Assembly (NCBI GenBank): GCA_026025795.1
Contig: JAPEUG010000036.1
Location: 54,990-74,989 of the forward strand
DNA length: 20,000 nt
Source of the DNA: Thelocarpon superellum
Lineage: Eukaryota
Direction: 5' to 3'
Of this stretch, positions 486-19,714 are shown piece by piece. The stretch's first letter is position 1; every line of letters starts with the position of its first letter. A program made the translations under genes and the position numbers. The notes beneath the pieces were generated by a model, which saw nothing but the letters and a program-made list of their open reading frames with translations, was not told the DNA's origin and searched no databases.

Positions 486-2108
486 CGTGATGGCGGGTGT
501 GAACACGTCCGCCGACGAGGCTGTCCAAGGCCCAGCGCCAGACTGTTGCGACGGTCTGTTCGACGTCTAACCCGACGGCGAGCCAGTTCAATGGCAGATG
601 GAGTGGCGGTGCCCGATCACGTCGATCGTCCCATGTGTAGGAGGGAGGGACAGGGTTGGTGTTACGTCCCCAATCTAACGGTGACGAGAGATTGAGTGGA
701 ATTCCTGTTGGCGAGTCCGAGTGCACGGAAGAAGCAGTACTGGCTGAGCGATCATCAATTGGCCGGACTTGATGGCCACCCAGGACGGAGTTCAACGGTT
801 GGGGCTCCGTTTAAAGATGCATAGGGCGTTCGTTCTTCAACAAGACTCGACATCAAGTTTGGGTGATTATTTGCTTCTCTCGTTCGCCTCTAAGCTTGCT
901 GGCCGGACTACCAGCTCTCGCCATCGTACCGCTACTGGGCTAGGCAACTGTTCGCAGCTCTGCCGCCCGTACGGGGACCGCGCAATCGCCGCTGTACCAA
1001 GCATTCCCTCTCCCAAATCCGTTGGCGATTCGCTTGGCGCTAATTCCCCAGCGTTTCTCGTAGCTGTAAGGGTTGGGCCTGGCCCAAAGCATCGGCTACC
1101 AGTTCGTCATCTCACTTCTTGAGCACGGACGTGGGACTTTTGTACCTTCGGCTCATGTGGAGTGTGTGTCGCCGAGGGGTAGAGGTTACCTTGTAACTTA
1201 TCCATTCACGTATCGCACTGCAAACCCAGCTTCACTCCATGTCCGTCAGCGCTGCCGTGTCACTTAGTCTCCGTTCGCGGCATGGGGAGAGCTGGCTGAT
1301 GACCAGGGACCAGATGCCCGTCCATTTCTTGAGCTGTGGGTAGCTTGCAAATTCACCTTTGGCCGACCCTCCTTACCGCAAACGGCTGTCGCTTGGGCTT
1401 GACCTCGCCAACATTCCCAACGCTTGCTGATCCCTGCAGAAAACCCTTGCTGAGGGCTGCACGCCGGCCGCTAGTGTTCCCCAGGCGTCAGGCGAGTACG
1501 GCAGTGCGTACCGATGGGCACGCCTTCACTCAGGTACTGTGTCCTCCCGCTAGTAGACGCATTCCCTCCAAGAGTGCGTTGTGGGCTGGACAAGCTGTGC
1601 GCTCGTAGGTAAATGCGGCGAGGGAATATCTCAACATCACATCAACGTACAGCAGCGATAGCCAACTCGGTTAGCCGCTGCGACCAGGAAGTACGCACTC
1701 GTACTCAACCTTCGACTCGCCCGCCGAACTGCACGTAGTGCTGCCGGAGGTGGAGCTGGAAAGCTCAGGCGCCTGACGGACCGATTCAACGCCAGCTTTT
1801 GTCGTGAGCTAACACCGCTAGATGTTTTCTTGATGCCAAGCTCCCCACCCATCTTTCTCGGCCTCAGGTCACCACCGCCCTCTAAGCATTCGAGATTCTC
1901 TGATTCCTCGAGAGATCTCAAGGATTTAATTCTTGTACTCGGTGCCCTCCATCGCGTGCTCGGGGACTGGGTCGTGCAATTGCGCCCGGTGGACGATCTC
2001 GTCCAGGTAGGTGGTGCTACCTTGCTCCCTCCACCACGACCTCGAACTGACCGTGCTTCAGCCAACAACGCCCTCGTCCCCCAACCGGTCCACCGTCCAC
2101 CGGCGATC
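486..2108. promoter_or_regulatory. Divergent FAS2/FAS1 intergenic region (shared promoter plus 5' UTRs)
   Basis: Head-to-head FAS2 (ATG 485, minus) and FAS1 (ATG 2109, plus). Divergent fasA/fasB pairing is known in filamentous ascomycetes. Transcription starts cannot be located from sequence. Confidence 0.75.
2007..2061 (+). other. Putative 55-nt spliceosomal intron in the FAS1 5' UTR
   Basis: CAG|GTAGGT donor at 2007, ACTGAC branch motif at ~2046-2051, TTCAG acceptor ending 2061, 47 nt before the FAS1 ATG. Its size matches the other introns in the window. Confidence 0.6.
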
Positions 2109-5100
2109 ATGTACGGCAACTCGCAGCATCTGCCGCAGACCGGTGCCTCCACGCCGCGGTCATCCTCCTCCCTCCGCCCGCTGATTTTGAGCCATGGCTC
2201 GTTGGAGTACTCGCTCCTGATCCCCACCCTCCTTCACTACAATGCCTCGCAACTCAAGGATGAATTCCAAGCCACCCTGCCCACTCCTACAGACGAGCTC
2301 GCGCAAGATGACGAGCCTTCATCTGCTGAGGAGCTTGTGGCCCGTTACATGGCCTTTGTCGCCGCAGCGGTAGAAGAGGGCGAAGACGACGCCCAGGGCT
2401 CGGCCGAAAATGTCTTGCGTCTCGTCCTGACCGAATTCGAACGGGCCTTCCTCCGTGGAAACGAGGCTCATGCCCTCGCAGCCACCCTCCCTGGCATCGA
2501 GGCCAAGAAGCTGCTCGTGGTTCAGGCCTACTACGCCGCCCGAGCCACGGCCAATCGACCCATCAAAGCTCACGACTCGGCCCTTCTCCGCGCCGCCGCC
2601 GACAATGAGGCTAAACTCTATGCCATCTATGGTGGTCAGGGTAACATCGAAGACTACTTCGACGAGCTCCGCCAGGTCTACATCACCTACCCCTCGTTCG
2701 TCCAGACGTTCGTCCAGACAGCGGCCGACTTGCTACAGTCCCTCTCGCGCGATCCCCGCGCCGAGAAGCTCTACGCCAAGGGACTCGATATCATGCGCTG
2801 GTTGCAGCATCGTGAGTCGCAACCCGATACGGACTACCTAGTGTCTGCCCCGGTCAGTTTGCCCTTGATTGGCGTCGTCCAGCTGGCCCACTTCACCGTC
2901 ATGTGCCGTGTCCTGGGCCGCACTCCCGGCGAGATCAATGAGCGCTTCAGCGGAACCACCGGCCACTCCCAAGGCATCGTTGTTGCCGCCTCCGTGGCCG
3001 CTGCCGACTCGTGGGAGTCGTTCGACGCCCTTGCAAAGAATGCCTTGACCATTCTCTTCTGGATCGGCTCGCGCAGCCAGCAGACCTACCCGCGTACCTC
3101 CTTGGCCCCCTCCATCCTGCAGGACTCGGTCGACCACGGCGAGGGTACGCCGACGCCCATGCTGAGCATTCGAGACTTATCCTACGCCGCTGTGGAAGAA
3201 CATATTGATGCCACCAACCACCATCTCCCGGCCGATCGGCATATCAGCATTTCGTTGGTCAACAGCGCGCGTAATCTTGTCGTCACTGGGCCGCCCCTCT
3301 CACTTTATGGGCTCAACTTGCGGCTTCGCAAGGTCAAGGCCCCTACCGGCCTCGACCAGACGCGCATCCCCTTTACCGAGCGCAAGGTCCGTTTCGTCAA
3401 CCGCTTCCTGCCGATCACCGCCCCTTTTCATAGCGCATATCTCGCCGACGCCACGCGCCTGCTCGAGGGAGATCTGAAGCATGTGTCGATCCCGGCAAAC
3501 CGCCTCAAGATGGCCGTCTTCGACACCGACAAGGGCGACGACTTGCGCCAGCGCGGCACGGAGAACATCGTGCCTATCCTGGTCCGGCTTATCACGCACG
3601 ACAAGGTGCACTGGAAGCAGGCTACCGACTTCCCCAACGCAACGCATGTCATTGACTTTGGTCCTGGTGGCATCTCCGGCCTGGGCGTGCTCACCAACCG
3701 TATCAAGGAGGGTACCGGCGTGCGCGTCATCCTTGCCGGCGCCATGGATGGCACCAACGCTGAGGTCGGGTACAAGCCCGAATTATTTGATCGCGATGAG
3801 GAGCACGCAGTCACCTACGCCGTCGACTGGGTCAAGGAGCACGGGCCCCGTCTCATCCGCACCTCGGCCGGCCAGACCGTGGTAGACACCAAGATGAGCC
3901 GGCTCTTGGGCCTCCCGCCTGTCATGGTCGCGGGAATGACGCCCTGCACTGTGCCCTGGGACTTTGTTGCCGCCACCATGAACGCCGGTTATCACATCGA
4001 GCTCGCCGGCGGCGGCTACTACAATGCCAAGACCATGACCGCCGCTCTGGCCAAGATCGAGGGCGCCATCCCCCCGGGTCGCGGCATTACCGTCAACCTC
4101 ATCTACGTGAACCCGCGTGCCATGGCCTGGCAGATCCCATTGCTTGGTCAGCTCCGTGCCGATGGCGTCCCCATCGAGGGTCTCACGATTGGCGCCGGTG
4201 TCCCATCCATTGAGGTGGCGAATGAGTACATCGAGACCCTCGGGCTCAAGCACATTGCCTTCAAGCCTGGCTCGATGGAAGCCATCCAACAGGTCGTCAA
4301 CGTCGCCAAGGCCAACCCTACGTTCCCCGTCATCCTGCAATGGACCGGCGGCCGTGGTGGCGGTCATCACTCATTTGAGGATTTCCACCAGCCCATCCTG
4401 CAGATGTATGGCCGCATCCGTCGCTGCCCCAATATCGTCCTCGTTGCCGGTAGCGGCTTCGGCGGCGCCGACGACACCTACCCATACCTCACTGGTGGCT
4501 GGTCTCGCGACTTTGGCTATCCCGAGATGCCCTTTGATGGCTGTCTCTTCGGGAGCCGCATGATGACGGCCAAGGAGGCCTGGACCAGCACCAACGCTAA
4601 GAAGGCCATTGCCGAAGCGGAAGGCCTGGATGATGGTGATTGGGAGAAGACCTACAAAGGGGCCGCCGGCGGCGTCATCACCGTACGCTCGGAGATGGGT
4701 GAGCCGATCCACAAGCTGGCTACGCGCGGCGTCCGCTTCTGGGCCGAGATGGACCAGAAGATCTTCAGCCTGGATAAGGCCAAGCGCGTGCCGGAGCTTA
4801 AGAGGCAGCGTGCGCACATCATCCAGAAGCTCAATGACGACTTCCAGAAGGTCTGGTTCGGGCGCAACGCGGCCGGCGAGAGCGTCGATCTCGAGGACAT
4901 GACCTATGCCGAGGTGGTCCGCCGCATGGTCGACCTGATGTACGTCCGCCACGAGTCACGCTGGATTGACGCCACGCTCAAGGCGCTCACGGGTGACTTC
5001 ATCCGTCGTGTCGAGGAGCGCTTCACCACCGAGACGGGTCGTGCCTCGCTCTTGCAGTCCTACAACGAGCTGAACACGCCCGACCCGGTCGTGGCCAAGA

Positions 5101-8100
5101 TTCTGACCGCCTATCCGCAGGCTGAGCGCCAACTCATCAACGCCCAAGACGTACAGCACTTTCTATTACTCTGCCAGCGACGCGGCCAGAAGCCTGTGCC
5201 CTTTGTCCCCTGCTTGGATGAGAATTTCGAATTCTTCTTCAAGAAAGACTCCTTATGGCAGTCGGAGGACCTGGAGGCGGTGGTCGACCAAGATGTCGGC
5301 CGCACCTGTATCCTCCAAGGCCCGACGGCGGCAAAGTATTCGCGCGTCATCGACGAACCCATCAAGGACATTCTCGACGGGATTCACACTGCTCACGTGG
5401 CTCGTCTGACCGAGAAGGTGTACGCCGGTCAGGCCGCGTCCATCCCCACGGTGGAGTACTTTGGTGGCCGTCTCCTGGGCGGTGACGATGAGCTCGATGT
5501 GGAAGGTCTGACGACGAGCGTGGAGGACCACAAGATCACCTATCGCCTGTCCAAGTCGGCCCAGTCGTCCCTGCCAGACCTTGATGCCTGGCTCGCGCTG
5601 CTGGCGGGCACGACATACTCGTGGCGACACGCGCTTTTCACGTCCGAGGTCTTCATCCAGGGTCAGAAGTTCCAGACCAACCCGATGAAGCGCATCTTTG
5701 CGCCCACTCACGGCCTCGTGGTTGAGATCGCGAACCCGCACCAAGCGGCGCAGACCGTCATCACGGTGTCGGAGCTTTCTTACGGGACCACGTATGTCAA
5801 GGTCATCCAGGTCTCGTTATCGGGCGAGAACGAGATCCAAGTGCAGCTGCTGGAAGAGCGCTCGGCCGAGGGAGCGGCGGTGGCGCTGCCCCTCAAATTC
5901 AACTATCGGCCCGAGACGGGCTACGCGCCCATCCACGAGGTCATGGAGGGACGCAACACGCGCATCAAGGAATTCTATTACCGGCTTTGGTTCGGCAACG
6001 AAGTCGCGCCGCTCGACGCCGACGTGACGGACAGCTTCGAGGGCGGGACGGTGACGGTGACGGCACAGGCCATCTTGGACTTTGTGCACGCCGTCGGCAA
6101 CACGGGTGAGGCCTTTGTGGACCGGGCCGGTAAGGAGGTGCTAGCGCCCATGGACTTTGCCATCGTGGTGGGATGGAAGGCCATCATCAAGCCCATTTTT
6201 CCGCGGGCCATTGACGGCGACCTCCTCAAGCTCGTGCATCTGTCGAATGGCTTCCGCATGCTACCGGGCGCCGACCCGCTGAAGAAGGGCGACGTGCTCT
6301 CGACCAGGGCAGAGGTGAACGCCGTCATCAATCAATCCTCGGGCAAGATGGTGGAGGTGTGCGGCACGATCACTCGTGAGGGCCGTCCAGTGATGGAAGT
6401 GACGAGTCAGTTCCTCTACCGTGGAGCCTACTCCGACTACGAGAATACGTTCCAGCGAAAGTACGAGACGCCGATGCAGGTGCACCTGGCTTCCTCTAAG
6501 GACGTGGCGGTGCTCCTGTCTAAGGAGTGGTTCCATTTTGACGAGCCTGACATTGAGCTCCTCGGCCAGACGCTCACCTTCCGGCTTCAGAGCGTGGTAC
6601 GCTTCCAGAATCAGACGGTCTTCCGCAGCGTGGTGACGCAGGGACCGGTGCTGCTGGAGCTTCCGACCAAGGAGATCATCGAGGTGGCGACGGTGGAGTA
6701 TTCGGCCGGGGTGTCGCACGGCAACCCGGTGATCGATTACCTGCAGCGACACGGATCTTCCATCGAGCAGCCGGTGCATTTTGAGCACGCCATCCCGCTG
6801 AACGGCAGCAAGACACCGTTGGTGCTCCGGGCGCCGGCGTCCAACGAGACGTACGCGCGCGTGTCGGGTGACTTCAACCCGATCCACGTGTCACGCGTGT
6901 TCTCGCGCTACGCCAACCTGCCAGGCACCATCACGCACGGCATGTACTCCAGCGCAGCGGTGCGCAGCCTGGTGGAGACGTGGGCGGCAGAGAACCACGT
7001 GGGCCGCGTGCGAAGCTTCCACTGCTCGCTCGTGGGCATGGTGCTCCCCAACGACGACCTCGACGTGCGTCTGCAACACGTGGGCATGGTGGCGGGCCGC
7101 AAGATCATCAAGGTCGAGGCGCGCAAGCAGGCCACGGACGAGCCGGTGCTGACGGGCGAGGCCGAGGTGGAGCAACCGGTGTCGTCGTACGTCTTCACGG
7201 GCCAGGGGTCGCAGGAGCAAGGCATGGGGATGGATCTGTACGCCAGCAGCCCGGTGGCGCAGGAAGTGTGGGACCGGGCGGACAAGCACCTGATGGACAA
7301 CTACGGCTTCTCGATCATCAACATCGTCAAGAACAACCCCAAGGAGCTGACCATCTACTTTGGCGGACCGCGCGGCAAGGCGATCCGGCAGAACTACATG
7401 GCCATGACCTTCGAGACGGTGGCGGCGGACGGCAGCATCAAGTCGGAGAAGATCTTCAAGGAAGTGGACGAGTCGTCGACCTCGTACACGTACCGCTCGC
7501 CCACGGGGCTGCTTTCGGCGACGCAGTTCACCCAACCGGCACTGACGCTGATGGAAAAGGCCAGCTTCGAGGACATGCGGTCCAAGGGCCTGGTGCAGAG
7601 CAACAGCAGCTTCGCCGGCCATTCGTTGGGCGAGTATTCGGCCCTGGCGGCCCTGGCCGAGGTGATGCCGATTGAGAGTCTGGTGTCGGTCGTGTACTAC
7701 CGTGGACTCACGATGCAAGTGGCGGTGGAGCGCGACCAGGCGGGCCGTTCGAACTACTCGATGTGCGCGGTCAACCCGAGCCGCATCTCCAAGAGTATGC
7801 CGGCCGTTGGGTGCTGTTGCTCGTCGTTTGTCTTGGGGTGCATGCTAATTGACGTGCGCAGCGTTCAACGAGCAAGCGCTTCAGTACGTGGTGGAGAACA
7901 TCGCCGAGGCCACGTCATGGTTGCTGGAGATTGTGAACTACAACATTGCGAACGCGCAATACGTGTGCGCGGGTGATGTGCGTGCCATCCCTTCGGCTCG
8001 CCGCGCGCAGTACTTACCTCAGAATAGCTTCGTGCGCTGGATTGCCTGACGAACGTGACCAACTACCTCAAGACGCAGAAGGTGGACATTCAAGCCCTGA

Positions 8101-8556
8101 CGCAGCAGATGTCGTTGGAAGACGTCAAGGCGCACCTGGTGGAAATCATCCGCGAGTGCGCCAAGCAGACGGAGGCCAAGCCGAAGCCGCTGGAGCTGCA
8201 ACGTGGATTCGCCACGATCCCGCTCAAGGGCATCGACGTGCCCTTCCACTCGACCTTCCTCCGCTCCGGGGTCAAGCCCTTCCGCAGCTTCCTGTTGAAG
8301 AAGATCATCAAGACGACCATCGACCCGAGCAAGCTGGTGGGCAAGTATATCCCCAACGTCACCGCCAAGCCGTTTGAGATCACCAAGGAGTACTTTGAGG
8401 AGGTGTACAAGTTGACCAACTCCCCACGCATCGGTCACGTGTTGGCCAATGTAAGTGCTCCGTGCCGTGTACCGTGAGCACCGTCCTGACCCGTCCATTT
8501 AGTGGGACAAGTACGAAGACCCGAAGGTGGAGATGGCCAAAGCCCCCGTAGCATGA
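2109..8556 (+). CDS. FAS1: Fatty acid synthase subunit beta (AT-ER-DH-MPT), ~2092 aa; exons 2109-7794, 7862-7977, 8028-8450, 8503-8556
   Basis: Start [35 protein letters not shown] resembles primary-metabolism FasB N-termini. Motifs seen: [18 protein letters not shown], MaoC-type [20 protein letters not shown] and GHSLGEY. Introns: 7795-7861 (GTATGC..GCTAAT..CAG), 7978-8027 (GTGCGT..ACTTAC..TAG), 8451-8502 (GTAAGT..CTGAC..TAG). Splicing gives the continuous frame ...[15 protein letters not shown]...[16 protein letters not shown]...[21 protein letters not shown], 6279 nt in total (divisible by 3). Confidence 0.97.
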
Positions 8557-10708: not shown

Positions 10709-13270
10709 TTAGAGATAAAACTCATGAATGCCCGACGGACCGAGCTCGTTATACTCCGAGCGAGTCATGAACCCCTTGCTGATACCCTGGTCAATGACGA
10801 AGACGACCTTGGCGGCGACCTGGGCACCGAGGAACGCAGCCTCTTCGAACCCAGCGTCCTTCCATTCGGGGAAGTAGTCCGGGATCTTAGGCAGTTTGAT
10901 GCTGGTCGGCGTCTGGTGCCCGTGCGACGTGTGGATCGAGTTGGAAATGCCGGCCTGGCCTACGTGCGGACTTCCTTGCGTGAGTGCCGCGGCGTGGTTC
11001 GAGGCCGTGGTGGCGGCGAGAAGGAGCGGGTTCACGGAGCTGCTGCCGCCCGCGCTAGGGCCGCCAAGGGCCGATGTGGACGCGGATGCCGACGCGAGTT
11101 GCGGCTGCGGCGTGTTGGCGCCCGTCGCGAGCGGCGTGGATAGATTGGACGGCAGCTCGGACGTGAAAATCGTCGCGGACGATGGCGAGATGAGGTATTT
11201 GGTCGTCAGCGTTGAGACGAGGGCGTCCTTGAAGCCTGTCGGTGCGCGTTAGGAGGAGGCTAGGGACCGTGAGAATGGGAGGGCTTACCTCGTACTCTGC
11301 ATCCATTCCCGACGATGACGAGCGAGTCCCAGAGGTCCCCCCGCTTGTTCACCTCGGGTACGGACAAAACAGTGCGGAAGATGGCGTCGGCCAGTCGATC
11401 CATGAAGTTGCCGCTGGTGCACTGGAATCGCTCCGTACCCACCTCGACCTCCTTGCGCACGAGACCCGGCACGCCGGTGAAGCGCGCCCGATTGCGTCGT
11501 CGTTCTTCTTTCCGCGCCGCCTTCTCTTGCTGTCGCCGCGTCGCTCCGCTCTCTTCTGCACTTGGGCCGGCTGCCTCTGAAGCGGCCTCCGGGGCTGCTT
11601 CCGATGCTTCTGGCGCGGCCTCCGGAGCCGCCTTTGCGGTGGTCACCGGAGCTGCCTCCTGCGCCGGGTTGGCTTGAGCAGCCTCGCTAGGCTTCGCCTC
11701 CTTCGCCTCCTCCTCGTCCTTCTTCTCACTGCTCGGCTCATCCCCAAGGAGGTCTGCGAGGACTTCGGCAGAGGGTTCGGTAGCGACGTCCATCGGGGCT
11801 GCGGCGGCCGCTTTCTCGCCGCCAGTCTCCGGCTCGTCCCGGCGCTCCTCATACATAAAGACGTTCTTCTCGCGCCGCGAGTTCGGGAGTCGAGTCGGCC
11901 GGACCGGACCCGCGGCTGCCTCGGCCGCCGCTTTCTTCGCCGCATCCCTCTCGGCCTTCTCCTTGTCCTTACGCGCCAGGAACTCCTGCGTCTTGCCGCT
12001 CGTGACGATCGCCGCCACGTCGAGGATCCCCTCGCCGTCTACCACGTCCTTCAAGTCGCCCATCTCCTCGTCGTCATCCCCCGCTCCGGCGCCGGCGACC
12101 AGACCCTGGCCTGCTGCTGCTGCTGCCGCCGCCTGGTCAACCGCCTTGGCTTCCGCCGAGATCGGCAAGGGCACGTCTTTGGGAAGGATTTCGCAGATGT
12201 TGCTCTTCTTCAGCTGCTCGCACATCTCGCGCGTCCAGCCCTTGGGGCCCAGCAACTCCAGCAGCCGCTGCGTCATCGTCTCGCCCCCGCATTCCGACAC
12301 AGCCACGCCGCGTCCGACGTCGTGCACGACAAACTCACTGACGGCGGTCACATCAGTCTTCTCGTAGCCGACGTCCACCACGGTGGCGGTCGGAATGCCG
12401 TATGCGTAGCAGACCGCCAGCGCCGAGTCCAACAGACAAAAGGCCGGCGTCTTGAACTTTTCAAAGAAGAACTGGGTGACGGTCTCGTGGTCCTGCTGGG
12501 TCCATGATGGTTGGGTGATGAGGAGAATGGGCGTGTGAAAGGGTGGGCTAAGGGTGTTGTGGATGTGGTTGAGGAGGGCCAAGAAGCATGACCAGTCCGT
12601 CACCCGCCCCTCCTTCAGCGGATAAACGGCGCCTTCTTCTGAGACCAGGTCTTCTTCGAAGTGGACCACCTCGTCCTCGTCTTCCTCGACTTCCTCCTCT
12701 TCCTCCTCTTCTACCTCTCCCGCCGCGTTCGTTTCCACAGCCGCCTCTGCTGGTTGGGGGTCGCCCGCATCTTGCATCTCCACGTCGCCTTCAGCTTTCG
12801 ACGCGCCATCGGTCGGCGCTGTTTCTTCTGACACTGGCTTTCCCGCTTCCGACTTCTTTCTGCTGTCTCCCTCCACCGTTCCTTCCGCTTCCTCTTTTAC
12901 CTGTTCTGTTCCATTTTGTTTCTCATTTCCTGTCGCTGCTGCCGTGGGGGGCGATGGTTCTCGAGCAGACAGTGCGGGCGCGGAGGCTTGAGGCGGTTGA
13001 GGCGGTTGTGGTGATTTGCGCTTCTCTCGGACCTTATGAGGTTCCCAGGTGCCCTTGATTTCGGCCGGGAACATGCGCGTGGGAACGCGTAGTTTGGCCG
13101 GCGTAAATGACTCCGGGAGGCCGAGTTGAGCCAGGGTCCGCTGAGACCCCGGAGCAATAATCTACCGTGGCCATCATTAGTACGTGCGGCGCCACAAGAA
13201 CAACATGGTCAGCAGCGGCACCAGCCACACGTGCACTTACCAGGACGTGTTCATCCTTGAACGGAGGCAT
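10709..13270 (-). CDS. ARP9: Actin-related protein Arp9 (RSC / SWI-SNF chromatin remodelling subunit), ~809 aa; exons 13270-13241, 13161-11289, 11235-10709
   Basis: Spliced N-terminus MPPFKDEHVL|IIAPGSQRTLAQLGLPESFTPAKLRVPTRMFP. Actin-fold motifs: YPLKEGRVTDW, QFFFEKFKTPAF, TATVVDVGYEKTDV, LWDSLVIVGNG, YFPEWK, FLGAQVAAKVVF, YNELGP. Introns 13162-13240 (GTAAGT..ACTAAT..TAG) and 11236-11288 (GTAAGC..CCTAAC..CAG). The spliced CDS is 2430 nt. Confidence 0.88.
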
Positions 13271-13738: not shown

Positions 13739-15081
13739 CTACCCCGATTGATAGAGTGCAGGCCCTGCGACCACATGGGGGTTGATCATGGTGAGATTAA
13801 AGGGCGTATACGTGATGTTGGCATCCGTCAGCGCGATAAACATGGTCCCGTTGATGGCCGGATCAGATTGAAAGGTGGAGATGTTGGGCTGAATGGTCAT
13901 GCCGGTGTTGCCGCGGATGTTGGTAAGGGCCGAGTAAGTCGTATTGAGCTGCGACACCCACACCACGTAGGCCGGCGCCCCAGCCACGGTAGATGTCACA
14001 TAGCTCTGATTGGGCCCGACAGGTTGTCCAGGCGATTCCCATGTCAGATACACCGTCTTGCCCGGATATGAGAGAGGAATTGTTCGATTCTGGGTGATGG
14101 CCGGAGCGCACGTTTCGCCGCAGGAAGCGTTCAAGCCAATCGACGAGATCGATTCATTGAAGCCGGTCTGGTTGGCGTCGGCCCGCGCTGGATTGGGATC
14201 ATTCAAGATGGTCAATGCAGGGAAGTTCTGCCACGCCAGGCGCGTGGTGTTGGCCGGACAGCTGGCGATGTATGGAGCAAGCAACGTCCAGCCCCAGGAC
14301 TGGGGGATGCCGGTCTCAAACCAGACGGGCATGGGGAAGAGCCCATCGAACTGACGAAAGATCATCTGTTGCCGCGCCTCGGTGGTGATGGATTGCAGCA
14401 GCAACTGTGCCGACTCACGCGAGTTGAGGTGATTGAGAAAGCCATACACGCCCGACTCGCCAAAACGGGTCAGTTTTTGGTTGAAGTCGACGAACTCGCG
14501 CACCGTGGTGAAAGGATAGGTATAGCTGCACTGCACCGGAGCCGCGGACCCCAGAATATCCGTGAGGAGTTTTGCGTGCCCCACTTCCTGATCCGCCATG
14601 AACTCGATCAGAAACCGATCGTCGGCATCTAAGCCGGCCTCCTCGAATTCCTCCACACTGAACTGTGCGAGCCCGTGATGGAAGAGATCCAGCTCGATCC
14701 ATTCCTGATATAAGGCTAGCGCCTGAAGTCACCGTTAGCTACGTACGACACCTCCCAACACCTCACGGCGATTTGGCTTACGATGGACTCGAAATCAAAG
14801 TCGCTCGTCACTTGGTAAACGGGCTCACTTCCGTTTGTGCCGAGTCCGCCGGCCGGTGTGTACGGTGCCGGCTCGGGAGCGTGAAGAGTGCCATCACGAG
14901 GGTACGAGGAGGCGTTCGGAGCCGGGGGTAATGCTGCAATGCTCGCATCGAGCACCGTGGTCGTGATGGCACCAATTGGTGATGACGATGGAGCCACTGA
15001 TGTCGCAACGGACGTCACCTGGGGGAGAGCATTGACAAAGGGTAGCAAGGCTACTGCCGCGACAGAATATAGAGCGCACAT
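13739..15081 (-). CDS. Secreted Rds1-like stress protein with ferritin-like domain, ~427 aa; exons 15081-14782 and 14722-13739
   Basis: ATG 15081 (AAAATG) begins a signal-peptide-like MCALYSVAAVALLPFVNALP followed by a Ser/Thr/Pro-rich spacer. Intron 14723-14781 (GTAAGC..GCTAAC..CAG) joins DFDFESI|ALALYQEWIELDLFHHGL. Ferritin-like motifs: MADQEVGHA, LTRFGESGVYGFL, SITTEARQQMIFRQF. These are typical of fungal Rds1-family proteins. Confidence 0.85.
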
Positions 15082-15823
15082 TTTAATTAAAGGACGCCGA
15101 AAGACGTAGAGGATGTGTGGATGTGTGGACAACCTCTGGGGAGCTAGGGAGGGGGATGCCCGGTTTGATATAGGACTGCACTCCCCACATCCATGGGTCG
15201 TCGTCATCGCCATCCTCGTCATCGTGGTGCGTTAACACGGAGCCCCACTTCTCCATGATGACGTATCTCGCAACTCGACGGTGACGCCGACGTACAAGGA
15301 CGAAAAGGACGAAAAGAAAGGGCAAGCGGAAGCGGCCACTAGTAGCTCCATGCTGGAACCCGGGCAAGGAAGAGGAGGTCGCCCGAGGACGCACGACGAG
15401 TGCCACGGGAAGGACAGGGTCTGACTGAGAGTCTTGTCAGCTTCTGGTCCACGCCGGAAGTAAATCCGGTCGTGAGATATGAAAAAGCGGACAGTGGTGA
15501 GCGCGAATGACACGCGGTGTTGCCATCATCGGATGCTGCCGAAAGAGATGACGTTGAGACTTTATCGACGTCGTACCCGCGGCGGCACATATTCAGAGAC
15601 TTTGATTTGACATAACCTGAAGTGGTTGGACCCTTTGACTAATCAGTAATCATTGCTTGCCTCCTCCACTCGCTACTCGTTAGGAGTATCGTGCTATGCA
15701 GAGCCTCGTAGTTTGCTCAATCAAGAGTGCTTTCTCATGATGGATCTCGTGCTCAGACCGTCTTCATCAAATTTTTGGTAAGTTTATATTTTTAATTTAC
15801 CCGCTCCCTATCGTATCTTGTTC

Positions 15824-15956
15824 GGTGCAGTGGGTAAGCACACGCCTATTCTTCGGTCTCCGGTCACATCTAACATGCCCCCCAGCGGAGTGGTTAACGC
15901 GTGAGCCTGCTAAGCTTATCCTTTCGGGGGCGCAGGTTCGAATCCTGCCTGCATCG
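15824..15956 (+). tRNA. tRNA-Ser(GCU), split gene: exon 1 15824-15833, exon 2 15886-15956 (81 nt spliced)
   Basis: Spliced sequence GGTGCAG TG GCGG AGTGGTTA ACGC G TGAGC CTGCTAA GCTTA TCCTTTCGGGGGC GCAGG TTCGAAT CCTGC CTGCATC G. Acceptor stem GGTGCAG/CTGCATC pairs 7/7 (one G-U), D-stem GCG/CGC, anticodon GCT at 15909-15911, long variable arm (Ser/Leu class II), canonical T-arm/B-box GGTTCGAATCC, discriminator G73. Confidence 0.92.
15834..15885 (+). other. 52-nt spliceosomal-type (GT-AG) intron inside the tRNA-Ser D-arm, between positions 10 and 11
   Basis: GTAAGCACACGCCTATTCTTCGGTCTCCGGTCACATCTAACATGCCCCCCAG: donor GTAAGC, branch CTAAC at 15870-15874, pyrimidine run and CAG acceptor. Precise removal restores the cloverleaf and a consensus A-box TGGCGGAGTGG. 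Confidence 0.85.
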
Positions 15957-15961
15957 CCAAA

Positions 15962-15966
15962 TTTTT
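15962..15966 (+). terminator. RNA polymerase III terminator (T5) after the tRNA
   Basis: TTTTT 5 nt after discriminator G73 (…CATCG CCAAA TTTTT). Confidence 0.7.
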
Positions 15967-16311
15967 GTTCCTCTATGGATCGACCATGTTCAATGTAAGA
16001 TCGAAGTTGTGGCTTTTGTTCTTTTACCTAGAGAAGGATGAGAAGCGAAATCCTTGCCCAGCAGCACGTAAAATATTGGAGCCCGTAGGTGTTCAAGATC
16101 TTCAGAACGGTGGATTCACTCGTTGAACGAGCGGAGCAGCGCTGGCCAATGCAAACCACCAAAAACGGCACTTAACTATCCAAGAGGAGCACCTTTGTAG
16201 CTGTTGTAAACAGTGGGTATCCATCCACTGGCATCTACCACATTGGCTTCAACTCTTCGGCCCTCAACGGGCAGTGCTTTGTTCCGGATCTCACCTCTCA
16301 GGCCTCCTCTT

Positions 16312-18433
16312 ATGAGCAAGACGAGGTGGAGTCATGCCATGACCAGTCCGCCAAACATGTCGGTCGATGAGACGGCTGTCTCCACATCAGCGACAGCAGC
16401 CCAACCTAGCTCCATCGAGGATACCCCCCAGGCGGGGCAGCGGGTGACACATGGCGGGAAGGAATACCACACCGTCCAGGAAGGGGCAGCCTTCATCTTG
16501 ATCCCCAAAGACTCCAACAGTGCCACCGAGGACGAGGCGGCTCAATCAGTCTTCTACAATCCCATCCAGCGCTTCAATCGCGACCTCACCGTCCTTGCCA
16601 TCAAGGCGTACGGGCAAGCGTTGTTGGCCAGCCAGCGGGAGAAGACGCAAAATGGGACGGCAAAGAAGGGAAGGCAGTCGAAAAAGAGGAAATGGGCCGA
16701 GCGGAATGCGGCGGCGGAGGCGGTCGATGTCAAGCCGATTGCCATGGAGGTCGAGCCATCAGGGGGGAAGGGACTGAACGAACCGCCGCCTACCAACGCC
16801 CCGGGTGTAGTTGGCGCAGCGTCTGATGAGGGGAAGTCATCGAAAGCTGCGGGCCCCATAACCCGTCCCTTTCGCATCCTGGACGCCCTCTCGGCGACGG
16901 GTCTCCGGGCGTTACGCTACGCAAAGGAGCTGCCCTTTGCCACGTGCATCGTCGCGAACGACCTGTCAGTGGACGCCACCAAAGCAATCAAGCTCAACAT
17001 TAAACTCAATCGAGTGGGCGACCGGGTTCACGTCAGTACGGGAAACGCCATGGCACAGATGTACGCTACGCTGACGCCCACCACATCTCGTGATTCAGCC
17101 ACGGGCGGGGGGAAGTACGACGTCATTGACTTGGATCCCTACGGTACTGCCGCTCCCTTCTTCGAGGCCGCCGTCCAAGCAGTCAAAGACGGGGGCTTGC
17201 TGTGCGCAACCTGTACCGACCCGGGAGTTTTTGCATCGGTGGGATATCCCGAGAAGACCTACGCACTATATGGAGGGACACCCGCCAAGGGGCCTCACTC
17301 GCATGAGGCTGGCTTGCGTCTGATCCTCCACGCCATCGCCTCGACGGCGGCACGCCACGGCCTGGCGATCGAGCCGCTACTTTGCTTATCCATCGACTAT
17401 TACGCTCGCGTCTTCGTCCGCGTCCGACGGTCTCCGGCAGCAGTGAAGTTTCTGGCGGGCAAGACGATGGTGGTGTATAGCTGCGATCAAGGTTGTGGGG
17501 CATGGGCGACGCAGCTCCTTCTGAGGAACAGAGCCACGAAGGCCAAGAATGGGGAGGCAATCTACCGACACGGGCTGGCACATGGACCGTCCGCGGGACA
17601 GCGCTGTGAGCATTGTGGCTTCTCAACACACGTACGTGGTCCACGTTTCACCATGTCAACGTGTCGACTAACGCGAGATATAGATTGCGGGGCCCATGTA
17701 CGCTGGGCCCCTACATTCAACGCCCTTCATCCAGAGCATGCTGGACGACCTTCCGCGCGTGGACGATGGCGTGTACGGCACAATAGCTCGCATCGAGGGC
17801 ATGCTCCTGACCGCGCTGGAGGAAGATCTGTCCCATGCCACGCCTCTGGAGCCCACGGGCGAGGATGAGATCGCTTCGAGGACTCAGTATGATCCCGCCG
17901 CGCTGGACCACCACCCCTTCTTCTTCATTCCCCACGCGTTGGCCAAGGTCATCCATTCCCAAACGCCACACGAGAACGCGTTGCGTGGGGCGCTCAAGCA
18001 TCTCGGCTACCGCGTGTCCCGGAGCCACTGTAAAGCGGGCAGCATCAAGACTGACGCACCGTGGTCCGTCATCTGGGAGGTGATGCGAGAATGGGCTCGG
18101 CAGAAGGCGCCGATCCGGGACGGGGCTGTCAAACCAGGCACCGCGGGCTGGGCGATCATGAAGAAGGACCCCCTCCCGGAAGGGTTGACATCATCGTCGG
18201 TCATGGCGCGTGATGCTCCGCTAGGCAGCGCGTCTGGACCAAAACCCGCGGTGACAGACGACGAATCGCCAAGCGCATCCGTACCGGCAGCCGATGACCT
18301 GAGTGACGGCACTGGTCGACAGGTCCAGTTCGACGAGGTGCTGGGACGACAGAAGGATCGCAAGCGGGTAGTGCGGTACCAGCTTAATCCGACGCCGAAT
18401 TGGGGCCCCATGAACCGAGCGAAATCGTCGTGA
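16312..18433 (+). CDS. TRM1: tRNA (guanine(26)-N2)-dimethyltransferase, ~689 aa from the first ATG; exons 16312-17631 and 17684-18433
   Basis: Trm1 motifs VFYNPIQRFNRDL, ILDALSATGLRALRYAKE, YDVIDLDPYG, GGLLCATCTD, HEAGLRLIL, LSIDYYARVFV, the Cys pairs CDQGC and CEHCG, SRSHCKAGSIKTDAP and the C-terminal RYQLNPTPNWGP. Intron 17632-17683 (GTACGT..GACTAAC..TAG) joins FSTH|IAGPMYAGPLH. Start is uncertain: in-frame ATGs at 16312, 16339 and 16357, and GTG at 16213. Confidence 0.94.
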
Positions 18434-19075: not shown

Positions 19076-19714
19076 GCGGTCCACTGGGATGGCTCGGGGG
19101 ACACTCCATGATTCTCCCTGCCCGTCCTCACTTGTCATTTTCTCTTGTCCTCCCACCCCAGATCAGTGAGAGCCAACACAATCTCAACACTTAATCCAGA
19201 CACATGCTCATCGTTCGTACACATGGTTGGGAGACGTAGGTAATGTCAGGTAGAAGATTGGAAAGCAGCAGGCTGGCTTAGTCAGCCACGACGACAAACC
19301 CGCATTCGAGCTATGGCTCGAGTAGTTCCGCAGTATTGTAACTACTACTAGTACTTACAGAGGGTGTTTACGGCAACTGCAGCCACGGTAATTCGCCCCC
19401 CACGTGACCCATTCCCAGGTGTACAAAAGCTTGCAGAATAGCTTCTGTAGTGAGAACCACTCGTCCTAGTTCACCATTCGGGGTGCGTCAGTAGGATCCC
19501 ATGCGATGACCACAGAAGAGCCGAGGGCATTGCTCGTGTCGCTGCGTGCCCAAGTGACGTGACTTAGCTCATGTCCACAGTCATGTTCAGCGTGTGATGT
19601 GGACTGTGGGGTGCAGGGGCCACTTGTTGATTGGCTTGAACTCAGTGTCATCGGTTAGTCTGCGGTCGCCATTCGCCGCCATTTGTGGTTGATTGTTGCT
19701 GGGGCAACAGTTTG

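Follow-up and report, generated by a model that had tools for sequence, protein, structure and literature searches.

Introns of the messenger RNA (mRNA) type have been reported in U6 small nuclear RNA (snRNA) genes of Schizosaccharomyces pombe and many other fungi (Tani and Ohshima 1989, 1991; Canzler et al. 2016, via PMC5855946), and the fission yeast U6 gene is single-copy and transcribed by RNA polymerase III (Pol III) (PMC5855946). These fungal U6 introns have canonical signals and are otherwise unconserved, their sites cluster in one region and vary by species, and the determinants of insertion are described as unclear (PMC5855946). Spliceosomal introns are also known in the U1, U2 and U5 snRNA genes of Rhodotorula hasegawae and in ascomycete ribosomal RNA (rRNA) genes (Takahashi 1993, 1996; Bhattacharya 2000, via PMC5855946), and the passages of that review on non-coding hosts name U6, U2, U5, U1 and rRNA, with transfer RNA (tRNA) not among these. 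Eukaryotic tRNA introns are placed at position 37/38, to be removed by the tRNA splicing endonuclease (SEN) and ligase, in a 2023 review that describes tRNA splicing as the work of an endonuclease, in contrast to the spliceosome (PMC10275265). At non-canonical positions, tRNA introns with a bulge-helix-bulge (BHB) motif occur in Crenarchaeota, Cyanidioschyzon merolae and nucleomorphs (PMC3978253). Here we analyse a 20,000-nucleotide (nt) stretch of Thelocarpon superellum DNA (the window) in which a tRNA-Ser(GCU) gene is interrupted in its D arm by a 52-nt insert. We put at about 70% the probability that this insert is a U2-type GT-AG spliceosomal intron in a functional nuclear tRNA gene, which would then need the spliceosome to mature. 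A literature search with little coverage of subscription journals, so that an earlier description is possible, found no tRNA gene described as hosting a spliceosomal intron; most likely, introns of a known kind here occupy a new class of host, tRNA.

The closest parallel is with U6. As there, a short GT..branch..AG intron lies in a small, highly conserved, non-coding gene that is apparently transcribed by Pol III, and the inserts of the window gene and of two further tRNA genes from metagenomes (L057 and L105) cluster at three adjacent positions while their interiors share no significant similarity. Unlike U6, the host is a tRNA and not a spliceosome component, the insert splits the A box whereas the U6 intron carries the B box, and two of the three tRNA genes also bear a second intron of the protein-enzyme type. 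The introns of R. hasegawae snRNA and ascomycete rRNA genes likewise occupy non-coding hosts, some of them outside the catalytic centre, but those genes are transcribed by Pol II or Pol I. With BHB-type tRNA introns our genes share an interrupted D arm, scanners that miss the gene and a disturbed A box that raises the question of transcription; those introns, however, have the BHB as their defining mark and are cleaved by the tRNA endonuclease, whereas here the motif is absent from two of three genes and spliceosomal signals are present. Canonical 37/38 introns occur as well, in L057 (35 nt) and L105 (18 nt), and the D-arm inserts differ from them in position (9/10 to 11/12), signals and predicted machinery. 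Introner-like elements, reportedly described by van der Burgt et al. in 2012 from Dothideomycete fungi as families of near-identical copies, are a possible source of newly gained short fungal introns. Within the window, the insert has no convincing similarity to the six other candidates (best z = 2.6, nine comparisons).

As it stands in the genome, the window gene is not detected as a complete tRNA. ARAGORN finds no tRNA in the native window, nor at the native locus with anticodon-loop introns allowed, and the Rfam tRNA model (RF00005) matches 15884-15948 at 39.8 bits (gathering score 29), covering model positions 9-63 only and leaving both acceptor strands outside the match. With the insert taken out, ARAGORN calls an 84-nt tRNA-Ser(gct) whose cloverleaf has an acceptor stem of 7 base pairs (bp), one of them G-U, a 3-bp D stem plus G13·A22, a long variable arm and G73. 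The features of a class II tRNA-Ser (7-bp acceptor stem, GCU, long variable arm, G73) thus come together only after insert removal, and the window gene has no 37/38 intron. The original prediction, made from the sequence by a model, had described a tRNA-Ser without its first 10 nt, which lay 52 nt upstream and were complementary to CTGCATC; the complete tRNA recovered here agrees with it, and the first seven bases of exon 1 do pair with CTGCATC (15949-15955). It had also proposed that a scanner should call the tRNA only after insert removal and that standard scanners would miss such a gene or call it a truncated pseudogene, and ARAGORN and the partial Rfam match bear out both. The fold energy of the native precursor is ordinary (z = -0.6). 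A CCA is encoded in the DNA at 15957-15959, directly after G73, which is unusual in a eukaryotic tRNA gene; it is probably there by chance, since L057 and L105 lack an encoded CCA.

The insert cannot be told apart from mRNA-type introns of the same window. It has a GTRNGN donor at the exon boundary, a CTRAY branch site near a YAG end and a length within the local range, as in U2-type GT-AG introns. For the local set, both strands were scanned for GTRNGN..CTRAY..YAG, and six candidates bridging or flanking open frames were kept; the TRM1 intron is backed by a Pfam TRM profile running on past the gap, and the other candidates belong to gene models inferred from frames only. Two of the six share the GTAAGC donor of the tRNA insert, three have CTAAC 12-13 nt from the 3' end, and their lengths run from 52 to 86 nt, two being exactly 52 nt. 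Of 200,000 random 52-mers of local composition, one carried the three signals at their proper places, and multiplying the single-signal frequencies gives 2.1e-5; we therefore reject a chance origin of the signals (all three together, about 2e-5). Here too the original prediction held: the donor is that of the ARP9 and Rds1-like introns (11236-11288 and 14723-14781, both on the minus strand), the branch A of CTAAC lies 12 nt from the insert's end, and the TRM1 intron and FAS1 intron 3 (8451-8502) have the same 52-nt length. Its remark that the insert has no T4 run is true, as it is of all three tRNA inserts, and does not discriminate: all six local candidates lack one too (longest T runs 2-3), so that in this GC-rich genome (52-66% GC in 1-kb steps of the window) the argument has no weight. 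An alternative donor, GTAAGT at 15778 within the AT-rich upstream element, would define a 108-nt GT..CTAAC..CAG candidate (15778-15885) that, given a longer transcript, would skip exon 1.

Table 1. Features of the interrupted tRNA-Ser(GCU) gene, candidate introns and neighbouring genes in the window
Feature	Position	Strand	Details
Exon 1 of tRNA-Ser(GCU)	15824-15833	+	GGTGCAGTGG; 10 nt: 5' acceptor strand (positions 1-7), U8, G9, G10
Insert	15834-15885	+	52 nt, between tRNA positions 10 and 11
5' splice site	15834-15839	+	GTAAGC, insert start
Branch site	15870-15874	+	CTAAC; branch A at 15873, 12 nt before insert end
3' splice site	15883-15885	+	CAG; insert ends CCCCCCAG
Exon 2	15886-15956	+	71 nt: remaining D arm, anticodon arm, long variable arm, T arm, 3' acceptor strand, G73
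Anticodon GCT	15909-15911	+	exon 2
B box	15935-15945	+	T arm, exon 2
G73 discriminator	15956	+	
Five-T run	15961-15965	+	5 nt past G73; resembles Pol III terminator
AT-rich TATA-like element	15783-15799	+	spans -41 to -25 relative to exon 1, with TATA at -39; candidate TFIIIB/TBP site
A-box-like sequence	15883-15893	+	CAGCGGAGTGG; insert's last 3 bases plus exon 2 start; consensus from general knowledge, role putative
TRM1 intron	17632-17683	+	52 nt, GTACGT, CTAAC at 12 nt
Candidate intron, Ferritin_2/Rds1-like gene	14723-14781	-	59 nt, GTAAGC, CTAAC at 12 nt
Candidate intron, actin-family gene	11236-11288	-	53 nt, GTAAGC, CTAAC at 13 nt
Candidate intron	13162-13240	-	79 nt
Candidate intron	8451-8502	+	52 nt
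Candidate intron	19273-19358	-	86 nt
Fatty acid synthase beta subunit	1662-7973	+	open frame, 2104 codons
NmrA-like gene			within window
Actin-family gene	11263-13161	-	
Ferritin_2 (Rds1-like) gene	13742-14728	-	
TRM1	16210-18430	+	Pfam TRM profile continues over 52-nt GT..AG gap

Diverged copies of the locus retain the insert together with unchanged exons. DNA contigs from four runs (X1, X2, X3 and X5) were compared with 15000-17000. X1 contains the window sequence (97% of sampled words) plus a second, diverged copy, of which a gapless 169-nt contig (15741-15909, depth 29.6) has 24 differences; X2 and X3 contain one 302-nt contig each (15762-16064), with 24 differences plus one 1-nt deletion. 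The insert is present at the same place in both diverged copies. Listed differences in the X1 copy fall on 16 of 83 nt of upstream flank, 7 of 52 in the insert and 0 of 34 in the exons, the downstream flank lying outside the contig; in the X2/X3 copy they fall on 10 of 62, 6 of 52 (plus the deletion) and 0 of 81, with 2 of 108 downstream. The listed divergence of the upstream flank is thus 16-19% and that of the insert 12-13%, with none in the exons, while one of the 24 differences in X1 and six of the 24 in X2/X3, near contig ends or off the table, are unlisted and in the worst case exonic. Randomly placed differences would miss the exons with P = 0.006 (X1) and 0.004 (X2/X3), values that are not independent because the copies share most differences.

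Because the exons are unchanged while insert and flank have diverged, the insert would predate the split of the copies and the exons would have stayed under selection afterwards. We thus read the tRNA exons as being under purifying selection since the insert arrived, which is unlike the behaviour of a pseudogene: exons drifting at the flank rate would not be expected to show zero listed changes in 34 and 81 nt. The original prediction's argument against decay is consistent with this retention of insert and exons. Changes within the insert fall at 15839 (donor +6), 15841, 15842, 15851, 15854, 15867 and 15879 or 15880, and none lies in GTAAG, CTAAC or CAG. Over 15741-16244 the second copy in X1 is about 7-14% different and has a depth of 29.6-51.9 as against 112-165, roughly one quarter to one half; it could represent a second haplotype, a hybrid subgenome, a paralogous duplication or a second strain.

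The same architecture recurs in other lineages. We scanned metagenomes with a Ser(GCU) pattern (D loop, seven free bases, anticodon stem end and loop), which gave at least 120 loci in at least 123 match rows, two genes of one contig being counted twice; an exact 27-nt piece of exon 2 had no metagenome match. When the rows are classed by the five bases upstream, 120 of 123 among the matches listed continue without a break through an ordinary D-stem and acceptor 5' strand, one (L074) is the sole row without upstream DNA, and two (L057 and L105) end upstream in a branch site plus YAG. Within the window's D-arm type (GCGG/CGC), two of the 12 listed rows are interrupted. L057 has a 9-nt exon 1 and a 52-nt insert (GTATGG…CTAAC…CAG) at position 9/10, and L105 an 11-nt exon 1 and a 50-nt insert (GTACGT…CTAAT…TAG) at position 11/12; the branch A is followed by 11 and 12 nt, respectively, and by 12 in the window gene.

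With the D-arm insert removed, ARAGORN calls tRNA-Ser(gct) in both metagenome genes. Once their 37/38 introns are also removed, L105 matches L015, whose D arm is uninterrupted, at 82 of 82 positions, and L057 matches it at 81 of 83, the two differences lying at ARAGORN's end calls. The window tRNA is identical to this group at 61-65 of 84 positions, so that interrupted tRNAs occur in at least two well-separated lineages and at three adjacent positions. On native DNA, ARAGORN finds nothing in L105 and miscalls L057 as a tRNA-Asn with a 99-nt intron, and Rfam at the gathering score has no match for either, whereas L015 scores 47.6 bits over positions 1-71. These two examples, missed or miscalled by both programs, lend weight to the earlier suggestion that such genes form a hidden class. 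A shared origin of the three inserts was considered and dropped, as their interiors show no significant similarity (window versus L057, z = 1.9, with 16 of 500 shuffles as good; other pairs, z about 0). Three of the nearest uninterrupted relatives (L015, L054 and L100) also carry 37/38 introns, and across these and the two interrupted genes intron lengths are 18, 19, 20, 30 and 35 nt while exons are identical or near-identical. Two Ser(GCU)-like genes in the scan look truly decayed, in contrast to the intact interrupted ones: in L024 the T arm is broken and the 3' part repeated, and tRNA similarity in L043 ends right after the anticodon loop.

We searched for the BHB motif with 3-nt bulges at or touching both cuts and a 4-bp central helix, G-U pairs allowed. 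None was found at the cut sites of the window gene, as the original prediction's reading implied, or of L057; L105 has a single weak BHB-like arrangement that depends on G-U pairs and has its cuts at the bulge edges. The window insert, at position 10/11, thus has neither of the marks of an endonuclease-type intron, a 37/38 position or a BHB at both cuts. Full spliceosomal signals in three genes, together with the lack of a shared BHB, point to the spliceosome. At the level of sequence, the tRNA call after insert removal, the locally typical signals, the retained insert and the absent BHB all support the earlier proposal that this tRNA matures through the spliceosome.

In the sequence of events that we propose, transcription would begin just upstream of exon 1, most likely by Pol III. 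The TATA-like element (-41 to -25), together with the internal B box, would position this polymerase, and the T5 run would end transcription. The spliceosome would then recognize GTAAGC, the branch CTAAC and CAG, and the intron would leave as a lariat. Joining of G10 to C11 would restore the D stem, and RNase P, RNase Z and the usual modifications would complete the tRNA. Pre-tRNAs from L057 and L105 would depend on the spliceosome as well as on the tRNA splicing endonuclease and ligase. The B box is intact in all three genes, and T runs follow G73 in each (T5 at 5 nt in the window, T4 at 17 nt in L057, T5 at 12 nt in L105). A TATA sequence upstream of exon 1 is also present in L057 (-39) and L105 (-54/-52), and AT runs of at least 6 occur within the 80 upstream bases in 8 of 10 uninterrupted relatives. 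As a candidate TFIIIB/TBP site, the TATA-like element would set the start just upstream of exon 1.

Several observations weigh against this reading. The junction of insert and exon 2 rebuilds a near-consensus A box at a normal distance from the B box, a feature that the original prediction had overlooked. In Saccharomyces cerevisiae, TFIIIC sets the start 10-20 nt upstream of the A box; by that rule, the rebuilt A box would place the start inside the insert and yield an RNA without exon 1. A start upstream of exon 1 would need either a Pol II transcript or TATA-directed placement of TFIIIB, which has been reported for fission yeast, and the TATA-like element is a suggested remedy for this problem. 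The 5' exon is very short, at 10 nt plus leader. Conservation of the splice signals in the diverged copies is not significant taken alone (P = 0.11, seven changes), and the unlisted differences of those copies belong here as well. In X2 and X3 there is also a different Ser(GCU) gene with an apparently ordinary 37/38 intron. Finally, transcription, the polymerase, the start site and splicing are all inferred from DNA.

The A-box problem and the short 5' exon would both disappear if the same spliceosomal intron were removed from a Pol II transcript, either the gene's own or the 5' leader of TRM1, with RNase P and RNase Z then releasing the tRNA. Spliceosomes normally act on Pol II transcripts, and TRM1 follows about 350 nt downstream on the same strand with no ORF (open reading frame) of at least 90 amino acids (aa) between. 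We nevertheless regard this route as unlikely. The T5 run 5 nt after G73 and the T4-5 runs past L057 and L105 speak against it, as do the intact B boxes, and L057 has no TRM1 neighbour. The architecture is thus independent of a host gene, and an explanation by a host gene would not be general.

It is also rather improbable, in our view, that the gene is a pseudogene inactivated by an intron-like mobile piece or a reverse-spliced intron, with another Ser(GCU) gene serving in its place. Such a history would fit the failure of scanners on the native gene and the truncated Pol III transcripts that the yeast rules predict from the rebuilt A box. Other Ser(GCU) genes, with what seem to be ordinary anticodon-loop introns, exist in X2/X3 and X5 and would fit it too, although they may be those of other organisms. 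In X1, by comparison, no uninterrupted Ser(GCU) contig matches exon 2 at 80% likeness or more, a suggestive result given that contigs and filters can hide a gene. Four X1 contigs are less than 90% like 15000-17000, namely the second copy of the locus, a contig over 15915-15951 and two short TRM1 pieces; the loose end of the 15915-15951 contig resembles a Ser(UGA) gene that has an intron in its anticodon loop. To our knowledge, AGC and AGU are read only by a tRNA with the GCU anticodon; with these codons making up 61 of 225 serine codons in four window ORFs, the organism needs tRNA-Ser(GCU).

Inactivation is further contradicted by the absence of listed exon changes between copies that differ by 12-13% in the insert and 16-19% in the flank. 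Three genes in two distant tRNA lineages each restore a perfect tRNA, the tRNA cores of L105 and L057 exactly match the working gene L015, and the decay of L024 and L043 takes another form (broken T arm or truncation). As a separate observation, the Ser(GCU)-like contig of X5, a run on organism B of the same study, lies on 15909-15947 at a depth of 328, other contigs having depths of 5-367, and may be multi-copy or part of a repeat.

Removal by the tRNA splicing endonuclease and ligase, with the likeness to mRNA introns incidental, is very improbable: D-arm introns do exist in archaea and C. merolae (PMC3978253) and L105 has its one weak BHB-like arrangement, but that arrangement relies on G-U pairs with cuts at the bulge edges, the window gene and L057 have none, the three spliceosomal signals occur at correct spacing in all three inserts (about 2e-5 each by chance), and the eukaryotic enzyme is described as measuring from the mature domain to 37/38 (PMC10275265).

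The window carries fungal-type genes, and the interrupted tRNA gene sits between the Ferritin_2 gene and TRM1 (assigned PF02005 in a protein atlas). No ORF of at least 90 aa overlaps 15640-16200 on either strand, and we thus reject an overlapping gene as an explanation. Downstream on the same strand, TRM1 is the first gene encountered; its product dimethylates tRNAs at G26, a base present in this tRNA. The linkage is probably a coincidence, because L057 has no TRM1 neighbour; synteny of L057 with the window is rejected on the same ground. The nearest recognizable ORF to L057 is glycerol kinase-like by eye, lies on the other strand and points away.

If the window gene is what we propose, a spliceosome-dependent tRNA would break the separation between tRNA splicing and the spliceosome, and tRNA would join U6, U1, U2, U5 and rRNA on the short list of hosts of spliceosomal introns. 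Natural splicing of a probable Pol III transcript, of which U6 is the first case, would gain a second. As tRNA lies outside the catalytic centre, the reverse-splicing account of U6 introns is not obviously applicable to it; the tRNA case would thus bear on intron origin and provide a test of that explanation. Because ARAGORN and Rfam miss or truncate such genes, fungal genomes may appear to lack tRNA-Ser(GCU) or to have wrong tRNA counts.

We hold it an even bet that spliceosome-dependent tRNA genes are a real, recurrent and unannotated fungal class, in which positions 9-12 of tRNA-Ser(GCU) gained introns several times or kept one that moved, and in which the interrupted gene is, in some organisms, the sole source of the tRNA that reads AGC and AGU. 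If this is true, a single pre-tRNA of the L057 or L105 type would pass through both RNA splicing systems of the cell, and the decoding of about a quarter of serine codons would depend on the spliceosome in some organisms.

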